Positions 1,622-8,796 of a DNA stretch of 8,796 nucleotides are shown in pieces. The stretch's first letter is position 1. The number at the start of each line of letters is the position of its first letter. The notes beneath the pieces were generated by a model. The model saw nothing but the letters and a program-made list of their open reading frames with translations, searched no databases and had not been told where the DNA came from. Source of the stretch: a virus (Duplodnaviria; Heunggongvirae; Uroviricota; Caudoviricetes); the IMG/VR virus record IMGVR_UViG_2693429555_000008; one strand, given 5' to 3'. The translations under genes were made by a program, and so were the position numbers.

Positions 1622-1903
1622 ATGGAAGAATTAAGAATATTTCTCAATTCTCTTTCGTCAGATGAACAGCGTATGTTTGCATGTGAGTGTGGTACTAGCA
1701 TCGGTTATCTAAGAAAGGCATTGAGTAAAGGTCAAATGTTAGGGGCATCGTTATGTGTCCTTATTGAGCGAGCCAGTAATGGTGAAGTTACACGTCAGCA
1801 ACTAAGGCCTTTTGATTGGATGAATATTTGGCCCGAGCTGGAAGATACCAAAACGTTAACACAACCACTTACTAGGAGCTTGATTCATGAAAATCAAGCA
1901 TGA
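1622..1903 (+). CDS. ydaS: Cro-like HTH regulator, YdaS family (93 aa)
   Basis: First rightward gene, divergent from the repressor, with a strong AAGGAG Shine-Dalgarno. The C-terminal segment LIERASNGEVTRQQLRPFDW matches the E-R-A-x-x-G-x-V-x-R-x-x-L-R-P-x-x-W signature I associate with YdaS/Cro-like phage regulators. Its 3' end overlaps the next gene by 17 nt. Confidence 0.65.
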   Translation: MEELRIFLNSLSSDEQRMFACECGTSIGYLRKALSKGQMLGASLCVLIERASNGEVTRQQLRPFDWMNIWPELEDTKTLTQPLTRSLIHENQA

Positions 1904-2312
1904 ACACATCCGCATGGCGATGAATGCCTGGGCGCGTCCTGATGGCGAAAAAGTTCCAGCAGCTGGAATAACCCAGGCTTATTTTGAGTTGGGTATGACG
2001 TTTCCTGAACTGTATGACGACAGCCATCCGGAAGCCCTGGCTCGCAATACCCAGAAAATTTTCCGCTGGGTAGAGAAAGACACCCCTGATGCAGTTGAAA
2101 AAATTCAGGCGTTGTTACCAGCGATCGAAAAGGCAATGCCACCTTTGCTGGTGGCCAGAATGCGCAGCCACAGTTCAGCTTATTTTCGGGAGTTGGTGGA
2201 GACGCGGGAGCGACTGGTGAGAGACGCTGATGATTTTGTCGCAGTGGCAATCGCCGGTTTCAATCAGATGAACCGTGGTGGCCCGGCAGGAAATGCTGTG
2301 GCAGTACATTGA
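1887..2312 (+). CDS. ydaT: YdaT-like protein (CII-position regulator/toxin family), 141 aa
   Basis: ORF MKIKHEHIRMAMNAWARPDGEK...; AGGAG Shine-Dalgarno at 1873..1877. It sits immediately after the Cro-like gene, as in the racR-ydaS-ydaT module of the Rac prophage; the N-terminus and length (~140 aa) fit my recollection of YdaT. Confidence 0.65.
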   Translation: MKIKHEHIRMAMNAWARPDGEKVPAAGITQAYFELGMTFPELYDDSHPEALARNTQKIFRWVEKDTPDAVEKIQALLPAIEKAMPPLLVARMRSHSSAYFRELVETRERLVRDADDFVAVAIAGFNQMNRGGPAGNAVAVH

Positions 2313-2383
2313 CTGACAATAGCCATATCGAATCGCTTCCGGCAATTCGTGAGTAAAAAGATTCGGTATCAGAAGAGGTGAGT

Positions 2384-2542
2384 ATGGCTAACGCCTGGCT
2401 CAGATTATGGCATGACATGCCAAATGACCCTAAGTGGCGAACAATTGCCAGGGTGTCAGGGCAGCCAATTGCAACAGTGATGGCAGTGTATATCCACGCT
2501 CCTGGTGAGCGCGTCACGAAATGTCACGCGAGGTCACATTGA
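2384..2542 (+). CDS. Replication initiator, N-terminal fragment (52 aa ORF ending inside iteron array 1)
   Basis: ATG 2384 with GAGGTG Shine-Dalgarno; MANAWLRLWHDMPNDPKWRTIARVSGQPIATVMAVYIHAPGERVTKCHARSH, stop TGA 2540..2542. The N-terminus resembles prophage replication proteins, and the gene sits where O would be in a lambda-like early-right operon. Confidence 0.5.
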   Translation: MANAWLRLWHDMPNDPKWRTIARVSGQPIATVMAVYIHAPGERVTKCHARSH

Positions 2543-3455
2543 TGTCACGACAGAAGATTTGGCAAGTGCGCTCGACGTGACAGAAGAGGTAATTGATTCA
2601 ATTTTGCAGACGATGCAGGGGCGGGTACTTGATGGTGATTTAATCACTGGATGGGAAAAACGCCAGGTGCTTAAAGAGGACAACGGCAATATTTCGCAAA
2701 CCGCAAAATCTCCGGCAGAGCGCAAGAGGGCGCAGCGTGAGAGGGAAAGAAAGCGGGAACAAAATGGCGATTGTCACGGCGCGTCACGAAATGTCACGCA
2801 CATGTCACGACGAGTCACGACAGATAAAGATACAGATAGAGATACAGATAAAGAAGATCAAAACACTATGGTCCATGGCGTAAAAAACGCCACGAACCAT
2901 GTAGGGGATGTTCAGACCGTCACTCCTGGCCAGCCCGCAGGCACGACACCGGAAGCCGATTCAGCGTATGCGCTGAAAGCCGATTCGGGCGCTGTGCAGC
3001 AGGCGATGACCGCTGGGCCGGAGCAATCACACCAACTGCAGCAGCCTGAAGCCGATTCCGCCATTCAGCGGGAAGCCGATCGGGTAGTCCCGGAAAACAC
3101 CGGGCAGCCTGTGGGACGAGTGGATTATCCGGATGTGTTCGAACAGGTCTGGCGGGAATACCCGTTACGAGCCGGGGCAAACCCGAAGAAATCCGCTTTC
3201 AGTGCCTGGAAGGCCAGATTACGCGAGGGGGTGCCACCAGAGGCCATGCTGGATGGTGTAAGGCGTTACACAAGATACCTGGCTGCTACCGGGAAAACGG
3301 GAACGGAATTTGTTCAGCGAGCGACGACGTTTTTTGGACCGGACCGGAATTTTGAAAACCCCTGGTTGCTCCCGGTAAGCGGCACGAACAACCAGCGTTG
3401 TGTTAATCATATTTCTGAACCGGACACCGAAATTCCGCCGGGATTCAGAGGGTAA
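2505..3455 (+). CDS. Replication initiator, main ORF in the +1 frame (316 codons; GTG at 2505, no Shine-Dalgarno of its own)
   Basis: Long ORF with no ATG or ribosome-binding site; its frame opens at 2481 and overlaps the N-terminal ORF over 2481..2542, so both are most simply one gene interrupted by a +1 frame change. It contains both iteron arrays and a low-complexity basic/acidic linker (KRAQRERERKREQ; TDKDTDRDTDKED). Confidence 0.6.
   Translation: MSASRNVTRGHIDVTTEDLASALDVTEEVIDSILQTMQGRVLDGDLITGWEKRQVLKEDNGNISQTAKSPAERKRAQRERERKREQNGDCHGASRNVTHMSRRVTTDKDTDRDTDKEDQNTMVHGVKNATNHVGDVQTVTPGQPAGTTPEADSAYALKADSGAVQQAMTAGPEQSHQLQQPEADSAIQREADRVVPENTGQPVGRVDYPDVFEQVWREYPLRAGANPKKSAFSAWKARLREGVPPEAMLDGVRRYTRYLAATGKTGTEFVQRATTFFGPDRNFENPWLLPVSGTNNQRCVNHISEPDTEIPPGFRG
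2509..2549. repeat. Iteron array 1: four GTCAC(G/A) motifs starting at 2513, 2523, 2533 and 2544 (10-11 bp phasing)
   Basis: Read directly. The 21-bp block GCGCGTCACGAAATGTCACGC (2509..2529) recurs at 2779..2799. Confidence 0.6.
2771..2855. repeat. Iteron array 2 (putative ori core): five GTCACG motifs at 2773, 2783, 2793, 2804 and 2814, followed by three 12-bp repeats ACAGATA(A/G)AGA(T/A) at 2820..2855
   Basis: Read directly; helical-turn phasing of short direct repeats next to an A-rich repeat block, inside the initiator gene, as for the lambda origin within O. Confidence 0.6.
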
Positions 3456-3492
3456 CAGATTTCAGGTCATGGGGTAATTTTCAGGAGGGCTT

Positions 3493-3768
3493 GTGGCAAA
3501 AGTTTTTACTCCCGAACTGCGGGAAGAAGTGAAGGCGCGCATTGTGGAACTGGTACGCAGAGATGGGCGAAAAACGCGTAAACAACTGGAAAATGAAACC
3601 GGGGCGACGAGACACCTGATAGAAGTTCTGGTGAAAGAGCTGGTAGTTAGTGGCGCAGTATATGGTTCAGGACATGGAATATTTCCTTCGGAGCAGGCTC
3701 GTAAGGACTGGGGAAAAGCCCGCAAAAAAAATGTCGAGAGCGGCAGTGAAAAAGAAGAGCGACCCTGA
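3493..3768 (+). CDS. Hypothetical small basic protein with winged-helix-like segment (91 aa)
   Basis: GTG 3493 preceded by a strong AGGAGG Shine-Dalgarno (3483..3488), 37 nt after the initiator stop. RKTRKQLENETGATRHLIEVLVKELVVSG looks HTH-like. An A8 run (3724..3731) lies near the 3' end where an overlapping +1 ORF continues to 3901. Confidence 0.5.
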   Translation: MAKVFTPELREEVKARIVELVRRDGRKTRKQLENETGATRHLIEVLVKELVVSGAVYGSGHGIFPSEQARKDWGKARKKNVESGSEKEERP

Positions 3769-4045
3769 CCTGATTTATTCATTGCTAGATGGCGAAATAC
3801 GCCGTTACAACAGACGACAGAATATAATTTGTCGCGAGTGTCGTCAGAGCGAAGTTATGCAGCGCATACTGGAATTTTATCAGGGAAATGTTCGGTATTA
3901 ATTGAAGTGACGAAATTAAAGAGCATTAGTTCAGATATTAATTGACACTTCGATGGCACAGGCCCAGACCTAGTCTGGTTGTCAGCTTTGAGCTAGGTGA
4001 ACGTTGGTATCGTTAGTTTGTATTAATCAACGGAGAATAGGCCAA

Positions 4046-4076
4046 ATGACTTTTCTTTGCCTCTTTTAATTATAAT
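4046..4076 (+). promoter_or_regulatory. Candidate promoter for the 932-aa gene (-10 TATAAT 4071..4076; weak -35 ATGACT 4046..4051, 19-bp spacer)
   Basis: Good -10 hexamer in a ~240-bp AT-rich intergenic region; the -35 is poor, so placement is tentative. AAGGA Shine-Dalgarno at 4132..4136 before ATG 4145. Confidence 0.25.
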
Positions 4077-4144
4077 TCAAGTTCAATTGATTACATTGAA
4101 GTACTAATGTGAGTCCGTCAAACAAATAGCTCAAGGAATAGGTC

Positions 4145-6943
4145 ATGTGGGGAAGTGAAAACAAACAAAATCTGGACGTACTGGATCCTGTGCAGTTGGT
4201 GCGTATCGAAGCGGTACACCGGGGGTTCCTTTACCAGCATCTTTACGCTGTAGGCTGCTTACTTTTGGCGCAGAGGGCAGCTATGGACTCAGTAACTGTC
4301 GAGCTTGATGAGGATATTGAGCTGAAATCCAAACAGGAACGTCTCTACATTCAGGTTAAAACCCGTTCAAAACCTATTATGCCCAACGATGTGTCGGGGG
4401 CTCTGGAGCGATTTGTAAAGCTCAGAAATGAGCATACTTCGGCAAACCGCGAAGGGGTGGCTTCTTTTGTGATTATTGTAAACCAGGCGCCTGGACCGCT
4501 GCTTCAGAAGATGATTGACGATAAAAAGCTTCCTTCTGATGTTCTTATTGTCTGGCCCCAGTCGACAGCTGGACGTCACCCGGCACTTCCGCCCGCATGG
4601 AGTACTCTGGCTGATGCGGCCACATGGTGTATCGCAGAAGCAGAAAAGCTGAAATTTTCACTATTGTCCCCAGAATCCTTGATTTGGAAGTTAGCAGGAT
4701 TGGTTCAGCTTGCCGCCACCGGAGGCGATACCAATGGACAACATACGTTTTTCACGGAAGAACTTACTGAACTATTTGAACAGTTGATCGTTCAGCTACA
4801 GGACTTTCCTGCACCACCAGCACTGTACCGCCCACAGAACGAAGAACCTTCTCTCACATCTGGTGAGCGGATCCGTATCCTTTGTGGACTCTCAGGTGCA
4901 GGCAAGACAGCTTGGGCCGCACAGGCCGCATTACACTCCACTGCACTTTGTGCTTATTACGACACCGGTGATCTTCCCGGTCCAGCTCTGGCCAGTACGC
5001 TGGTGCGCGAGATGGCTGCTAGATTTACAGCCCGTGACCAAGACGGTTTGCGCAGGATTTTGCTCCCCGGTGCCAGTGGTTTTGAGGCTCTTAGGAGTTT
5101 TGATACCTACCTGAAAGAGCAGGGTACCACCTTGGTGCTGGTTCTGGATAACGCCCATCGTGTACCTGCGGAAAATCTACTGGATGTTCTGAATGCAACT
5201 ACACATATTCGTTTTGTGCTGTTGTGCCAGCCTCACGAAAACGTTCGCGAACTGGAGGTCATGACGGGGCTACAGCGCGAGGGCCTGCAGGGATGGAATC
5301 TCGATACGGTAGCTGTCGTTGTAAACGATATCGGAGGATTTGCCACCGCTATGGGATACGAGCAGCTACGGGCTTACACTGGTGGTCTTCCCCTGTATGT
5401 AGAGAGCGCCGCAAAAATCGCCGTTTCTGATTATGAGCGTAATGTCGATGCTCTGTGTGCTGAACTCCAGCAACAAACCCATACTGCGGAAACCGCCCAA
5501 GAAATTATTCTGTCACGTGTATTTCAGGGATTTGAATCACTACTTCAGAGCGCGCTGGCATTGTTCAGTCTCTCTGACGTAGGGCTGAGTCGCGAAGAGA
5601 TTTCTACGCTCCTAATCAATTCGCTGAACATTTCACCAAGCAGTGCTGCTTCTTTAATTAGGAAAATGCGCGCTACTGGCACTATTGAAATTTATGGAAA
5701 CCAGACCCTGAAGGTACATGATGCTGTCAGGGGGCTAGGACTGCAACATCTGGAACTGATGGATCAGGGTATATCGAACAAAGCGCTACTAGCGCTGAAA
5801 GACCTTTTAGTTGAAAGTCTTCATAATACCCGCAATACAAAACGGTTATCGTTGTTGACTCAACTTTATATTAAGCTCAATGATGTCACGACGTTGATCG
5901 AACTCTCAGGCCAAGAAATGTTTTATGAGATGGGCGTGACGGTCGACATTCTTGCAAGCTTGGAGCGTGCTGCAACATCGGACTTATTGGGACCTGTTCA
6001 TAAATTCTGGGCATTGGATGGCCTTGTTTTCGTTGAGCTTAAAGACGGAATATCCGACCACATTGCTCAGAGGTTAAACATCATGGGAGCTTTACTTGCG
6101 GAGCACAAGTTCGGCTATCAAGAAGAGATGGCCTATGCAATGAAACGAATGTTATTTTCGGCAGAAAGCAATGATGCACGAGAAGTTCAAAAGCTGGCAC
6201 AGGAAGTCCGCCCCCAACTCCCAGATGAAGAACATAAACGCATCTTTGACTACAACCATGCCATTGCACTCTGGAGATTAAAAAAACTCAAGGATGCTGA
6301 AACATTAAGCTGTAATGTTATACAAGGGTACTATTCTTTATTTGGTATCACACCTGCTGATGTCATAGGAAAAAACGCCGACGCATTATGGAAAACTATT
6401 AATCATTCCGAAAATATGCAGGAACACTTTAAACATATGGCTGATGCTCTGGAGTTGCTGGCCAGAATTCGTGATGCGCAGGGAAAACTGTCACCATTAC
6501 TGCGTATTCATTCGATGAAGTTCTACAATCTGGCCATGGCCCCGGAATCCATGGTCAGGGTGGGCCAAGATCTGGCGGATGAGTTTGTTGCCATAAAGGA
6601 TTACGACGGTGCCAAGGAAGTCATGGAGCAACATGTCCTGCCGGTTGTCAATGAGGCAGGTCTAGTACATCGACTGATTCAGGTTCGAAGCCAATACGCA
6701 GTCATATTAGCACTATCGGGTCAGCATAAAGCAGCTGATGTCGAAATGCAGCGCCTTGCTCCCTATATCGAAGGCCTCACAGGTGTACAGCGTCAAGAAA
6801 TCCAAAATCAATCAAATTACATCGTACAGCTTGCCCATAAAGCAGCAAAGACTAAATTAACTGAAGTTTTTGGTGCGGTCGGCCGGAATGAACAATGCCC
6901 CTGTGGCTCGGGAATAAAGTACAAAAAATGTCACGGTGCCTGA
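4145..6943 (+). CDS. STAND/NB-ARC-like P-loop NTPase, 932 aa, with nuclease-like N-terminal domain, helical C-terminal region and terminal SEC-C zinc motif; candidate anti-phage defence protein
   Basis: Uninterrupted 2.8-kb ORF with its own Shine-Dalgarno. Walker A GLSGAGKT (4886..4909); Walker B-like LVLVLDNAH (5132..5158); HIRFVLLCQPHE resembling an NB-ARC RNBS-B/TTR motif; GGLPLYV resembling the GLPL motif (5381..5398); C-terminal CPCGSGIKYKKCHG (6896..6937) matching the SEC-C metal-binding motif. N-terminal GFLYQHLY and D/E-rich strand followed by QVK are compatible with a PD-(D/E)xK fold. GC content looks lower than in the flanking phage genes. Confidence 0.9.
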   Translation: MWGSENKQNLDVLDPVQLVRIEAVHRGFLYQHLYAVGCLLLAQRAAMDSVTVELDEDIELKSKQERLYIQVKTRSKPIMPNDVSGALERFVKLRNEHTSANREGVASFVIIVNQAPGPLLQKMIDDKKLPSDVLIVWPQSTAGRHPALPPAWSTLADAATWCIAEAEKLKFSLLSPESLIWKLAGLVQLAATGGDTNGQHTFFTEELTELFEQLIVQLQDFPAPPALYRPQNEEPSLTSGERIRILCGLSGAGKTAWAAQAALHSTALCAYYDTGDLPGPALASTLVREMAARFTARDQDGLRRILLPGASGFEALRSFDTYLKEQGTTLVLVLDNAHRVPAENLLDVLNATTHIRFVLLCQPHENVRELEVMTGLQREGLQGWNLDTVAVVVNDIGGFATAMGYEQLRAYTGGLPLYVESAAKIAVSDYERNVDALCAELQQQTHTAETAQEIILSRVFQGFESLLQSALALFSLSDVGLSREEISTLLINSLNISPSSAASLIRKMRATGTIEIYGNQTLKVHDAVRGLGLQHLELMDQGISNKALLALKDLLVESLHNTRNTKRLSLLTQLYIKLNDVTTLIELSGQEMFYEMGVTVDILASLERAATSDLLGPVHKFWALDGLVFVELKDGISDHIAQRLNIMGALLAEHKFGYQEEMAYAMKRMLFSAESNDAREVQKLAQEVRPQLPDEEHKRIFDYNHAIALWRLKKLKDAETLSCNVIQGYYSLFGITPADVIGKNADALWKTINHSENMQEHFKHMADALELLARIRDAQGKLSPLLRIHSMKFYNLAMAPESMVRVGQDLADEFVAIKDYDGAKEVMEQHVLPVVNEAGLVHRLIQVRSQYAVILALSGQHKAADVEMQRLAPYIEGLTGVQRQEIQNQSNYIVQLAHKAAKTKLTEVFGAVGRNEQCPCGSGIKYKKCHGA

Positions 6944-7016
6944 GTCTTTGTACGACCATGCGGGCCTTATTGTCTTGCTATTGCTCTTATGGTTCGCCTT
7001 TCTGATTGATTTCATA

Positions 7017-7045
7017 TTGGCGAGGTGACGGGAGTTAAGTAGAAT
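7017..7045 (+). promoter_or_regulatory. Candidate hok/mok mRNA promoter (-35 TTGGCG 7017..7022, -10 TAGAAT 7040..7045)
   Basis: 17-bp spacer. The predicted start near 7052 would give a ~110-nt leader and a ~420-nt transcript ending at the terminator 7445..7471, the size expected for hok-family mRNAs. Confidence 0.35.
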
Positions 7046-7098
7046 GGCTGCGGGTGCTTGAGGCTATCTGTCTCAGGCATGAACACCAAAGGCAGATA

Positions 7099-7172
7099 GA
7101 GAAAAGCCCCAGTTAACATTACGCGTCCTGCAAGACGCTTAACATTAATCTGAGGCTCAATCTATGAACGGC
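7099..7172 (-). ncRNA. sok: Candidate Sok-like antisense RNA
   Basis: Minus-strand promoter -35 TTGCCT (rc of 7202..7207) and -10 TAACCT (rc of 7179..7184), 17-bp spacer, start near 7172. The transcript would be complementary to the mok Shine-Dalgarno and start codon (7152..7166), contain hairpin GCGTC-CTGCAA-GACGC (7123..7138) and end in a U-rich tract (rc of 7099..7105). Boundaries are approximate. Confidence 0.35.
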
Positions 7173-7376
7173 AAATCTAGGTTAGCCTCTTACGTGCCGA
7201 AAGGCAAGGAGAAGCAGGCTATGAAGCAGCAAAAGGCGATGTTAATCGTCCTGATCGTCATCTGTTTAACCGTCATAGTGACGGCACTGGTAACGAGGAA
7301 AGACCTCTGCGAGGTACGAATCCGAACCGGCCAGACGGAGGTCGCTGTCTTCACAGCTTACGAACCTGAGGAGTAA
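7164..7376 (+). CDS. mok: Mok-like reading frame (70 aa), an in-frame N-terminal extension of hok
   Basis: ATG 7164 with GAGG Shine-Dalgarno 8 nt upstream; in frame with hok and sharing its stop, as I recall for chromosomal mokC/hokC. Its start region is the predicted Sok target. Confidence 0.5.
   Translation: MNGKSRLASYVPKGKEKQAMKQQKAMLIVLIVICLTVIVTALVTRKDLCEVRIRTGQTEVAVFTAYEPEE
7221..7376 (+). CDS. hok: Hok/Gef-family type I toxin (51 aa membrane peptide), HokD/RelF-like
   Basis: Translation MKQQKAMLIVLIVICLTVIVTALVTRKDLCEVRIRTGQTEVAVFTAYEPEE is nearly identical to the E. coli HokD/RelF sequence as I recall it; hydrophobic transmembrane helix followed by the conserved RKDLCEV...GQTEVAVF core. 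Confidence 0.9.
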   Translation: MKQQKAMLIVLIVICLTVIVTALVTRKDLCEVRIRTGQTEVAVFTAYEPEE

Positions 7377-7444
7377 GAGATCAGGCGGGGGAGAAATCCC
7401 TCGCCACCTCTGATGTGTCAGGCATCCTCAATGCACCCGCACTT

Positions 7445-7471
7445 AACCCGCTTCGGCGGGTTTTGTTTTTT
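7445..7471 (+). terminator. Intrinsic terminator of the hok transcript
   Basis: Stem AACCCGC (7445..7451), loop TTCG, stem GCGGGTT (7456..7462), then TTTTGTTTTTT to 7471. Confidence 0.7.
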
Positions 7472-7543
7472 CCTGGCATTCTGGTTTACAATTCGCACGC
7501 CAGCCTGAACAACTGGCACCTGCTGCGCCAGCAGAGACAACCG

Positions 7544-7822
7544 ATGGCGCACGATACCAAATTACACAATTCTAATGATTCTGCTGTCTTTGCCAGCAGG
7601 TGCGGACGGCGTTTTCACGCATTCACATCAGACTGGTTCCAGCATCCTCCATGCACTGAAGAGCAGGCTGAATGGATAATTCAGTGTTACCGCAGGCGTG
7701 GATACGAGGTTAAGAAAGCTCTTAGTCTCGACTATCGTCACTGGATAATCTCAGTCAGACTCCCTTACTCCGAACGCCCACCGCGTCCGTCCCGCACATT
7801 CCAGCAACGCATCTGGAGGTAA
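7544..7822 (+). CDS. Hypothetical 92-aa protein, paralog copy 1 (Cys/His/Arg/Trp-rich; Rem-like position after hok)
   Basis: Track ORF 7415..7822 contains the hok terminator, so the start is placed at ATG 7544 (MAHDTKLHNSND...WFQHPPCTEEQAEWIIQCYRRRGYEV...). Near-identical to the 8145..8423 product over the C-terminal ~65 residues. In the Qin prophage hokD is followed by rem then ydfU; assignment is by synteny only. Confidence 0.55.
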   Translation: MAHDTKLHNSNDSAVFASRCGRRFHAFTSDWFQHPPCTEEQAEWIIQCYRRRGYEVKKALSLDYRHWIISVRLPYSERPPRPSRTFQQRIWR

Positions 7823-8039
7823 CGTGCGGGTATTACTTCGACCTGTTCTGGTACCGGAACTCGGGCTGGTGATCGTTAAGCCGGGCCGTGAATCCATGCC
7901 GGTATTCCACAATACCCGGGTACTGGTGGAGCCGGAACCGAAAAGCATGCGTAATCTGCCGTCCGGGGTCGTTCCTGCCGTTCGCCAGCCGCTGGTGGAA
8001 GACAAAACATTGCTGCCGTTTTTCAGTAACGCACGGGTA
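7616..8039. repeat. Tandem direct repeat, unit A (424 bp, ~95% identical to unit B)
   Basis: Base-by-base comparison with 8217..8640, offset exactly 601 bp, with a handful of substitutions. Confidence 0.85.
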
Positions 8040-8078
8040 GGAATAAAAGCAGGCTTTTCAGCTTTTGCAGAAGAATAA
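7824..8078 (+). pseudogene. Truncated copy of the downstream Cys/His-rich gene (DUF968/YdfU-like?), 84 codons
   Basis: GTG 7824 two nt after the upstream stop, with GGAGG Shine-Dalgarno. The first ~72 codons (MRVLLRPVLVPELG...FFSNARV) are near-identical to the 8425 gene; the sequence then diverges at 8040 and terminates (…GIKAGFSAFAEE), at the end of duplicated unit A. Confidence 0.5.
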
Positions 8079-8144
8079 ACTCATCTACAATCTTGCGCGG
8101 GGCTGAACTCCCGCTGAGTAACACCGTGCCACCGGAGAAAACCG

Positions 8145-8423
8145 ATGGCACGCAACGTAAAATATTACAATTCTGATAATTCGCCCGTTCTTGCCTGCAC
8201 GCACGAGCGGTATTCTCACGCATTCAAGTCTGAATGGTTCCAGCACCCTCCATGCACTGAAGAGCAGGCGGAATGGATAATTCAGTGTTACCGCAGGCGC
8301 GGATACGAGGTTAAGAAAGCTCTTAGTCTCGACTACCGTCACTGGATAATCTCAGTCAGATTGCCTAACTCCGAACGCCCACCGCGTCCGTCCCGTACAT
8401 TCCAGCAACGCATCTGGAGGTAA
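8145..8423 (+). CDS. Hypothetical 92-aa protein, paralog copy 2
   Basis: ATG 8145 with GGAGA Shine-Dalgarno (8134..8138); MARNVKYYNSDNSPVLACTHERYSHAFKSEWFQHPPCTEEQ.... The N-terminal ~25 residues differ from copy 1; the rest is near-identical. Confidence 0.6.
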   Translation: MARNVKYYNSDNSPVLACTHERYSHAFKSEWFQHPPCTEEQAEWIIQCYRRRGYEVKKALSLDYRHWIISVRLPNSERPPRPSRTFQQRIWR

Positions 8424-8640
8424 CGTGCGGGTATTACTTCGACCTGTTCTGGTACCGGAACTCGGGATGGTGGTCGTTAAGCCGGGCCGTGAATCCATGC
8501 CGGTATTCCACAATACCCGGGTACTGGTGGAGCCGGAACCGAAAAGCATGCGTAATCTGCCGTCCGGGGTCGTTCCTGCCGTTCGCCAGCCGCTGGTGGA
8601 AGACAAAACATTGCTGCCGTTTTTCAGTAACGCACGGGTA
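8217..8640. repeat. Tandem direct repeat, unit B
   Basis: See unit A. Confidence 0.85.
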
Positions 8641-8796
8641 ATTCGTGCTGCTGGTGGTGCTGGTGCATTGTCTGACTGGCTGTTGTGCCATATTAAATCC
8701 TGCCAGTGGCCACACGGCGATTATCATCACAGCGAAACCGTCATTCACCGTTATGGTACCGGCGCAATGGTGTTGTGCTGGCACTGCGACAACCAG
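8425..8796 (+). CDS. Cys/His-rich phage protein, 5' part (DUF968/YdfU-like?), continues beyond the window
   Basis: GTG 8425 translationally coupled to the upstream gene (GGAGG 8416..8420); open to the window end (124 codons). ...IRAAGGAGALSDWLLCHIKSCQWPHGDYHHSETVIHRYGTGAMVLCWHCDNQ contains C/H clusters suggesting a metal-binding domain. Confidence 0.6.
   Translation, partial: MRVLLRPVLVPELGMVVVKPGRESMPVFHNTRVLVEPEPKSMRNLPSGVVPAVRQPLVEDKTLLPFFSNARVIRAAGGAGALSDWLLCHIKSCQWPHGDYHHSETVIHRYGTGAMVLCWHCDNQ

Follow-up and report, generated by a model that had tools for sequence, protein, structure and literature searches.

A lambdoid prophage initiator gene with internal origin-like DNA, very probably pseudogenised by a single inserted G in an Escherichia coli lineage

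Is a replication initiator that is spread over two overlapping reading frames a pair of genes, a gene rejoined by recoding, a broken gene or a mistake in the sequence? The question is raised by positions 2384-3455 of the window, the whole 8,796-nt stretch of Caudoviricetes DNA analysed here (IMG/VR record IMGVR_UViG_2693429555_000008), in which the original prediction had described an initiator split by a +1 frame change. Its account of the frames was accurate. The first ORF, led by a Shine-Dalgarno-like GAGGTGA that can be read directly from the sequence (2375..2381, + strand), runs from the ATG at 2384, which is also the annotated start of the intact coding sequence in three relatives (L001, L002 and L003), to the TGA at 2540-2542. 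Its 52 codons (2384..2542, +) comprise 38 native codons (MANAW...MAVYIH) and 14 out-of-frame codons (APGERVTKCHARSH) before the TGA. The second frame is closed by a TGA at 2478-2480, opens at 2481 and extends to the stop codon at 3453-3455; it holds native codons 39-356 (2499..3455, +), now in the +1 frame. As had been claimed, this 316-codon ORF has no ATG start and no ribosome-binding site: its earliest possible start, at which gene callers begin it, is a GTG at 2505 (316 aa) with no Shine-Dalgarno sequence ahead of it. The two frames overlap solely in the 62 nt from 2481 to 2542 and differ by a shift of +1. The two ORFs together are one gene, not two.

We aligned the window with strains Z1322HEC0003 and ST866 and phage Tritos, and compared it in addition with strain Z1323HEC0108. 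In four relatives, including the phage record of Tritos, the gene is a single unbroken coding sequence of 1071 nt and 356 aa, not a pair of separate genes. Between CAC and CTC, at window position 2498 (CAC-G-CTC; 2498..2498, +, placed by alignment to the relatives and by the list of differences), Z1322HEC0003, ST866 and Tritos all lack exactly one G, and the other 240 alignment columns are identical save for one Tritos substitution upstream of the start codon. Deleting G2498 in silico restores a 1071-nt ORF whose 356-aa product is identical to WP_001262378.1 and equals that of the intact coding sequence in two of the relatives (L001 and L004), with MAVYIH|LLVSASRNVT at the repaired junction. 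Skipping one base does join the frames, as had been suggested, but the lesion lies at 2498 and not at 2499-2504, and the proposed junction, MAVYIHA|LVSASRNVT, is not the native one; the placement of the lesion at the start of the first iteron array was approximately right, the first GTCACG repeat lying at 2513, 15 nt downstream of the G. Over 8,038 bp, the window differs from Z1323HEC0108, its closest relative, by the G and two window-private SNPs, with no other indel. At position 245, where the window has T, all 8 G-bearing loci that cover the site have C, as does the intact sister allele; at 7381, again T in the window, the base is C in all 7 loci that cover it and in the sister.

An indel of one base that no complete E. 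coli genome searched contains could be a sequencing or assembly error with no counterpart in real DNA. A 1,201-nt query around the gene matched 3,385 of 5,426 complete E. coli genomes, with the best matches spanning 1,200 nt, one base short of the query. A 61-nt probe across the site matched 1,728 complete E. coli genomes, every match being 60/61 and none having the G, and the G was likewise absent from all seven phage records that carry the 61-nt stretch. By exact protein look-up, however, the 316-aa product is on record in 16 contigs of public assemblies, and each of the ten loci fetched from these (L006-L015) contains the G-bearing 28-mer; the G-less 27-mer is present in five intact relatives. 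The ten fetched carriers are six NCBI draft isolates (GCA_037641125.1, GCA_002459455.1, GCA_001284205.1, GCA_001285225.1, GCA_001277395.1 and GCA_014408525.1) and four metagenome contigs from ENA, including one of Hadza gut origin, and they represent several countries and sample types. Because independent reads and assemblers, from six isolate projects and four metagenome studies, share the identical G in 10 of 10 loci, a sequencing artefact, one of the causes that had been put forward, is excluded, and we regard its probability as next to nil. The G is also outside any homopolymer. No other indel separates the window from its closest relative over 8 kb, so the assembly is not prone to such errors.

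From 1872 to 7156 the carriers all have a single core haplotype in common, with variation confined to the flanks; this points to one origin and later recombination in the flanks. A mutational hotspot with recurrent events was considered and rejected, all carriers lying on this one haplotype. The insertion is recent, since the carrier GCA_037641125.1 and the intact Z1323HEC0108 differ over 20 kb by no more than the G and 10 SNPs. The comparison thus identifies the insertion as real, inherited, recent, of single origin and lineage-specific. That none of the 5,426 complete genomes has the allele, when 16 draft or metagenome contigs do, is a little surprising, but compatible with a lineage of which the collection contains no complete genome. 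The 52-aa N-terminal product gave no record in an exact look-up, which is uninformative because gene callers do not call such an ORF.

The 62-nt frame overlap, a 0-frame that ends in UGA as it does in prfB, a rare AGG codon at 2531 and a Shine-Dalgarno-like hexamer, GGTGAG, at 2504-2509 could be read as signs of programmed +1 ribosomal frameshifting, which in the manner of prfB would join the frames into a full-length initiator. A codon-by-codon inspection of 2480-2542 makes this extremely unlikely, however: only AAA-T at 2519 can re-pair in +1, with a common codon next to it, CAT-TGA and GCG-AGG are not slippery, and any shift downstream of 2498 would replace conserved residues. Unlike prfB, the window has no slippery codon, no correctly spaced Shine-Dalgarno sequence and no conservation of the arrangement, and with an unbroken gene in the four aligned relatives and the seven phage records, and no frameshift in 1,728 complete genomes, no relative needs recoding. 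We therefore reject programmed frameshifting, and the cause that is upheld among those originally offered is a pseudogenising 1-bp insertion in a cryptic prophage, the intact homologues being single 356-aa ORFs minus one G and the surroundings those of a decaying lambdoid element.

The profile phrog_3729, ‘replication initiation protein’, is matched by the repaired protein from end to end (positions 1-356 of 356, E 5.5e-253), and this match, together with the GTCACG arrays described below, supports the original call of a replication initiator with internal iterons. WP_001262378.1 is named ‘phage replisome organizer’ or ‘hypothetical protein’ in RefSeq, and family members in phages include gp36 of Escherichia phage Tritos and the ‘DNA replication protein O’ of vB_EcoS-640R1. 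The N-terminal part, residues 1 to about 160-190, matches other initiator, replisome-organiser and DnaD-like-loader PHROGs, and residues from about 186-200 to 356 (~170 residues) match a second set of PHROGs that includes phrog_18526 and phrog_1701. At E<=0.01, neither the intact protein nor either fragment had a Pfam match; Phage_rep_org_N (PF09681) matched residues 5-123 below threshold (E 0.017, 15.6 bits against a 23.3-bit cut-off), the match spanning profile positions 1-119 of 121. Because of the N-terminal PHROG matches and this weak Phage_rep_org_N match, we place codon 39 within the N-terminal domain. For the initiator family as a whole, the searches found no above-threshold Pfam family and no solved homologue beyond the C-terminal tail.

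That tail deserves separate mention. The last 24 codons of the initiator (3384-3455), ...NHISEPDTEIPPGFRG, closely resemble the extreme C-terminus of E. coli DnaT (PDB 6aep, 2ru8 and 9zbt; NF002770; E 0.0015-0.07), and the matches in NCBIfam and PDB sequence searches are confined to these ~24 residues. The resemblance suggests that the phage protein may mimic a DnaT contact to recruit host replication proteins, and the DnaT-like tail accounts for the ‘Primosomal protein I’ annotations in some phage records. One further match in these searches, to a designed-repeat protein, is spurious.

Whereas phrog_3729 calls for one uninterrupted ORF of ~356 codons, the window has two overlapping ORFs, and because the extra G at 2498 splits the ORF, the gene is a pseudogene of phrog_3729 and not a functional member. 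It agrees with the WP_001262378.1 loci in every residue once G2498 is removed, and in its position after YdaS/YdaT and before DUF977, but differs from them in the break after codon 38, of which there is no example among the complete E. coli genomes and the phage records searched. We consider it very probable that 2384-3455 is the initiator gene of a lambdoid (Qin/Rac-like) E. coli prophage, with internal origin-like DNA, that was pseudogenised by G2498; as such, the case is an ordinary frameshift pseudogene of an already catalogued phage initiator family. The course of events starts with the insertion of a single G at 2498, after codon 38, in one E. coli lineage. Translation from the ATG at 2384 would then yield a 52-residue peptide of 38 native and 14 nonsense residues that ends at 2542; the other 318 codons are shifted into the +1 frame, where they lack a ribosome-binding site. 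Since it is the conserved N-terminal ‘replisome organiser’ domain that is interrupted, no full-length initiator would be made. We infer that initiator activity would be lost and that the prophage would be unable to fire its own origin; the N-terminal domain probably binds the iterons in the intact protein, and productive iteron binding would be lost with it. Because no further decay has accumulated in the initiator gene, relaxed selection is not demonstrable from the sequence.

A point against a simple pseudogene is that low-level re-initiation at the in-frame GTG 2505, TTG 2559 or ATG 2613 could yield an N-terminally truncated protein, possibly with some residual activity. Such a product, made by re-initiation after 2542 or from the GTG at 2505, would keep the C-terminal domain with its DnaT-like tail and might even be useful, perhaps as a dominant-negative against related phages or by binding a host factor. 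The availability of the three starts fits this idea, as does the conservation of the C-terminal 170 residues as a module in their own right (phrog_18526, phrog_1701). The 316-codon frame is moreover intact in 10 of 10 loci, but with a mutation so recent this intactness is uninformative. No Shine-Dalgarno sequence precedes any of the candidate starts, there is no precedent among relatives, and the product would lack part of the N-terminal domain; a useful truncated protein is thus very unlikely, and loss of the initiator by a frameshift remains the preferred reading.

The gene broken by the G also contains DNA that resembles a replication origin. The window has 14 copies of the hexamer GTCACG where 3.9 are expected, and a count of 14 was reached in 0 of 200 shuffles. 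Nine of the copies fall within 2513-2819, one inverted and the other eight on the + strand in a 10-11 nt phase. A first iteron-like array (2513..2549, +) has GTCACG at 2513, 2523 and 2544 and the variant GTCACA at 2533, with 10-11 nt spacing, and is followed closely by the single inverted copy (2576..2581, - strand). A second array (2773..2819, +) has GTCACG at 2773, 2783, 2793, 2804 and 2814. When the GTCACA variant is counted, 9 of 10 repeats of the phased set from 2513 to 2819 are on the + strand. Directly after the second array lies an AT-rich stretch (2820..2867, +), a candidate unwinding element that includes three tandem 12-nt units, ACAGATAAAGAT, at 2820-2855; the G+C minimum of the gene, 0.33, falls at 2810-2869. 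The AT-rich stretch is in turn directly followed by an interrupted 33-nt palindrome (2868..2900, strand undefined), which was picked up by a terminator scan and which as a DNA hairpin reaches -9.5 kcal/mol (z -4.6; 0 of 200 shuffles as good). The inserted G itself turns TCCACC into TCCACG at 2493-2498, a 5/6 match to the GTCACG iteron core that stands exactly 20 nt, or two helical turns, upstream of the first GTCACG; this is probably a coincidence.

The layout of 2513-2900, with two arrays 260 nt apart, an AT-rich stretch and a palindrome, invites comparison with bacteriophage lambda. In ori-lambda, a palindrome follows the high-AT region. The lambda O gene contains four iterons and then a 39-bp high-AT region, and small insertions in O abolish initiation (PMC6022878). 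Both genes thus have origin-like DNA inside an initiator gene and the same order of iterons, AT-rich DNA and palindrome, and two features of a lambda-type replicon, phased direct repeats within the coding sequence and an adjacent AT-rich region, are seen in the window gene. The differences are nevertheless considerable. The lambda O protein has no detectable sequence relationship to the window protein, and Pfam Phage_rep_O did not match the repaired protein even at E<=10. The lambda iteron is an 18-19-bp palindromic sequence, whereas in the window gene a core of 6 nt recurs with a 10-11 nt phase, in two arrays 260 nt apart. Directly downstream, neither a P-like nor a DnaC-like helicase loader was found: the frameshifted DUF977 gene and the gene for the 932-aa SEC-C protein come next, and the initiator itself ends in the DnaT-like tail instead.

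As a whole, the window represents the early region of a lambdoid E. coli prophage. It begins with ydfC, ydfB and DUF1391 homologues, continues with a divergent repressor (1102-1563, - strand), a YdaS-like Cro (1622-1903), YdaT (1887-2312) and, beyond the initiator gene, DUF977 and the 932-aa SEC-C protein (4145-6943), and ends with sok/hokD and the start of a DUF968 gene. The DUF977 gene (3493..3901, +) is itself frameshifted into ORFs 3493-3768 and 3650-3901; PGAP flags it as ‘frameshifted’ in sister strains, and it is intact (417 nt) in AR_0089. Its frameshift offers independent evidence of decay in this prophage module. The sister prophage in Z1323HEC0108 (NZ_CP148374.1 955000-1004500) is ~46 kb long and is located at tRNA-Ser/mtfA, next to nleB2. 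It has a frameshifted tail-fibre gene, a terB with an internal stop and, in the late region, an IS1203 insertion with the SASA esterase and holin genes on either side. Its int is flagged as frameshifted by PGAP, but the catalytic His...Tyr region is kept and only the extreme C-terminus, beyond the catalytic Tyr, is affected (L017 2940-4028). The initiator gene is accordingly disrupted relative to intact orthologues, in a heritable form and at a locus with other disrupted genes, as is typical of a pseudogene in a degrading prophage.

The cryptic prophages Rac, Qin and DLP12 likewise have several frameshifted or IS-interrupted genes, as does this sister lambdoid prophage at its tRNA gene, and Qin and Rac share its type of early region, with dicB, ydfABC, ydaS and ydaT homologues. 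Unlike Rac, Qin and DLP12, however, the prophage is far earlier in decay, with ~46 kb and a full set of head and tail genes.

The insertion may be real and inactivating and still not be neutral, if it was selected for preventing lethal in-situ origin firing (‘replicative killing’) and thereby locked in a useful prophage. In lambda, a derepressed prophage that cannot excise replicates in situ and thereby kills its host; the cells that survive have small insertions or deletions in O, P or ori (PMC6022878). Because these survivors carry lesions of this kind, a selective advantage is plausible, and the flagged int and the other defects of the sister prophage, as well as the occurrence of the allele in several countries and sample types with recombined flanks, point in the same direction. 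On the other hand, the integrase retains its catalytic His...Tyr region, with only the extreme C-terminus hit, so that excision may still be possible, intact alleles persist in equally decayed sister prophages, and a single event cannot demonstrate selection; we therefore consider a selected loss unlikely.

Its fullest form, in which the G would be an adaptive ‘locking’ mutation that leaves the initiator dead and the origin DNA intact and fixes cargo of use to the host, namely the LmuA/Cap4-like SEC-C protein, hokD and the adjacent nleB2, seems quite unlikely to us. If it were true, the host would be protected from in-situ origin firing by a decaying prophage and would retain the cargo. In a less likely variant, the re-initiated 316-codon frame would give a truncated, DnaT-tailed protein that interferes with incoming related phages. 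The ordinary frameshift pseudogene thus stays the reading on which we rely.

For annotation, this reading means that the two ORFs should be merged into one frameshifted pseudogene and treated neither as two genes nor as a recoding site. The allele is also a convenient clonal marker, as one G separates draft and metagenome E. coli from near-identical sisters (8,038 bp compared), and the two alleles provide a natural pair of isogenic prophages with and without the initiator, in which a host benefit of lost replication could be tested. The initiator family is of greater interest than the frameshift, given its phased arrays, its AT-rich stretch and palindrome, its DnaT-like tail and the lack of a loader gene.

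Several observations concern the remainder of the window. The 932-aa protein (4145-6943), whose gene separates hokD from the replication module, carries a SEC-C zinc motif at its C-terminal end. It matches LmuA or Cap4-type nuclease weakly at the N-terminus (PADLOC E 5e-7; Pfam weak) and has a weak match to AAA_22; PADLOC gave only weak LmuA and SEC-C-motif matches for this neighbour. We regard it as a candidate prophage-borne defence gene. A sok antisense RNA at 7052-7226 (Rfam RF01794, 110 bits) and the hokD toxin ORF (7164-7376) overlap, and the sok/hokD type I toxin-antitoxin module appears intact. At the right end, 7438-8038 and 8040-8796 hold a 92-aa ORF with a DUF968-start segment and its second, ~7% diverged copy. 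This extra copy is absent in Z1323HEC0108 and present in the draft assembly GCA_001284205.1 (L008), and it is either a genuine mosaic duplication or the place where two copies of the prophage join.
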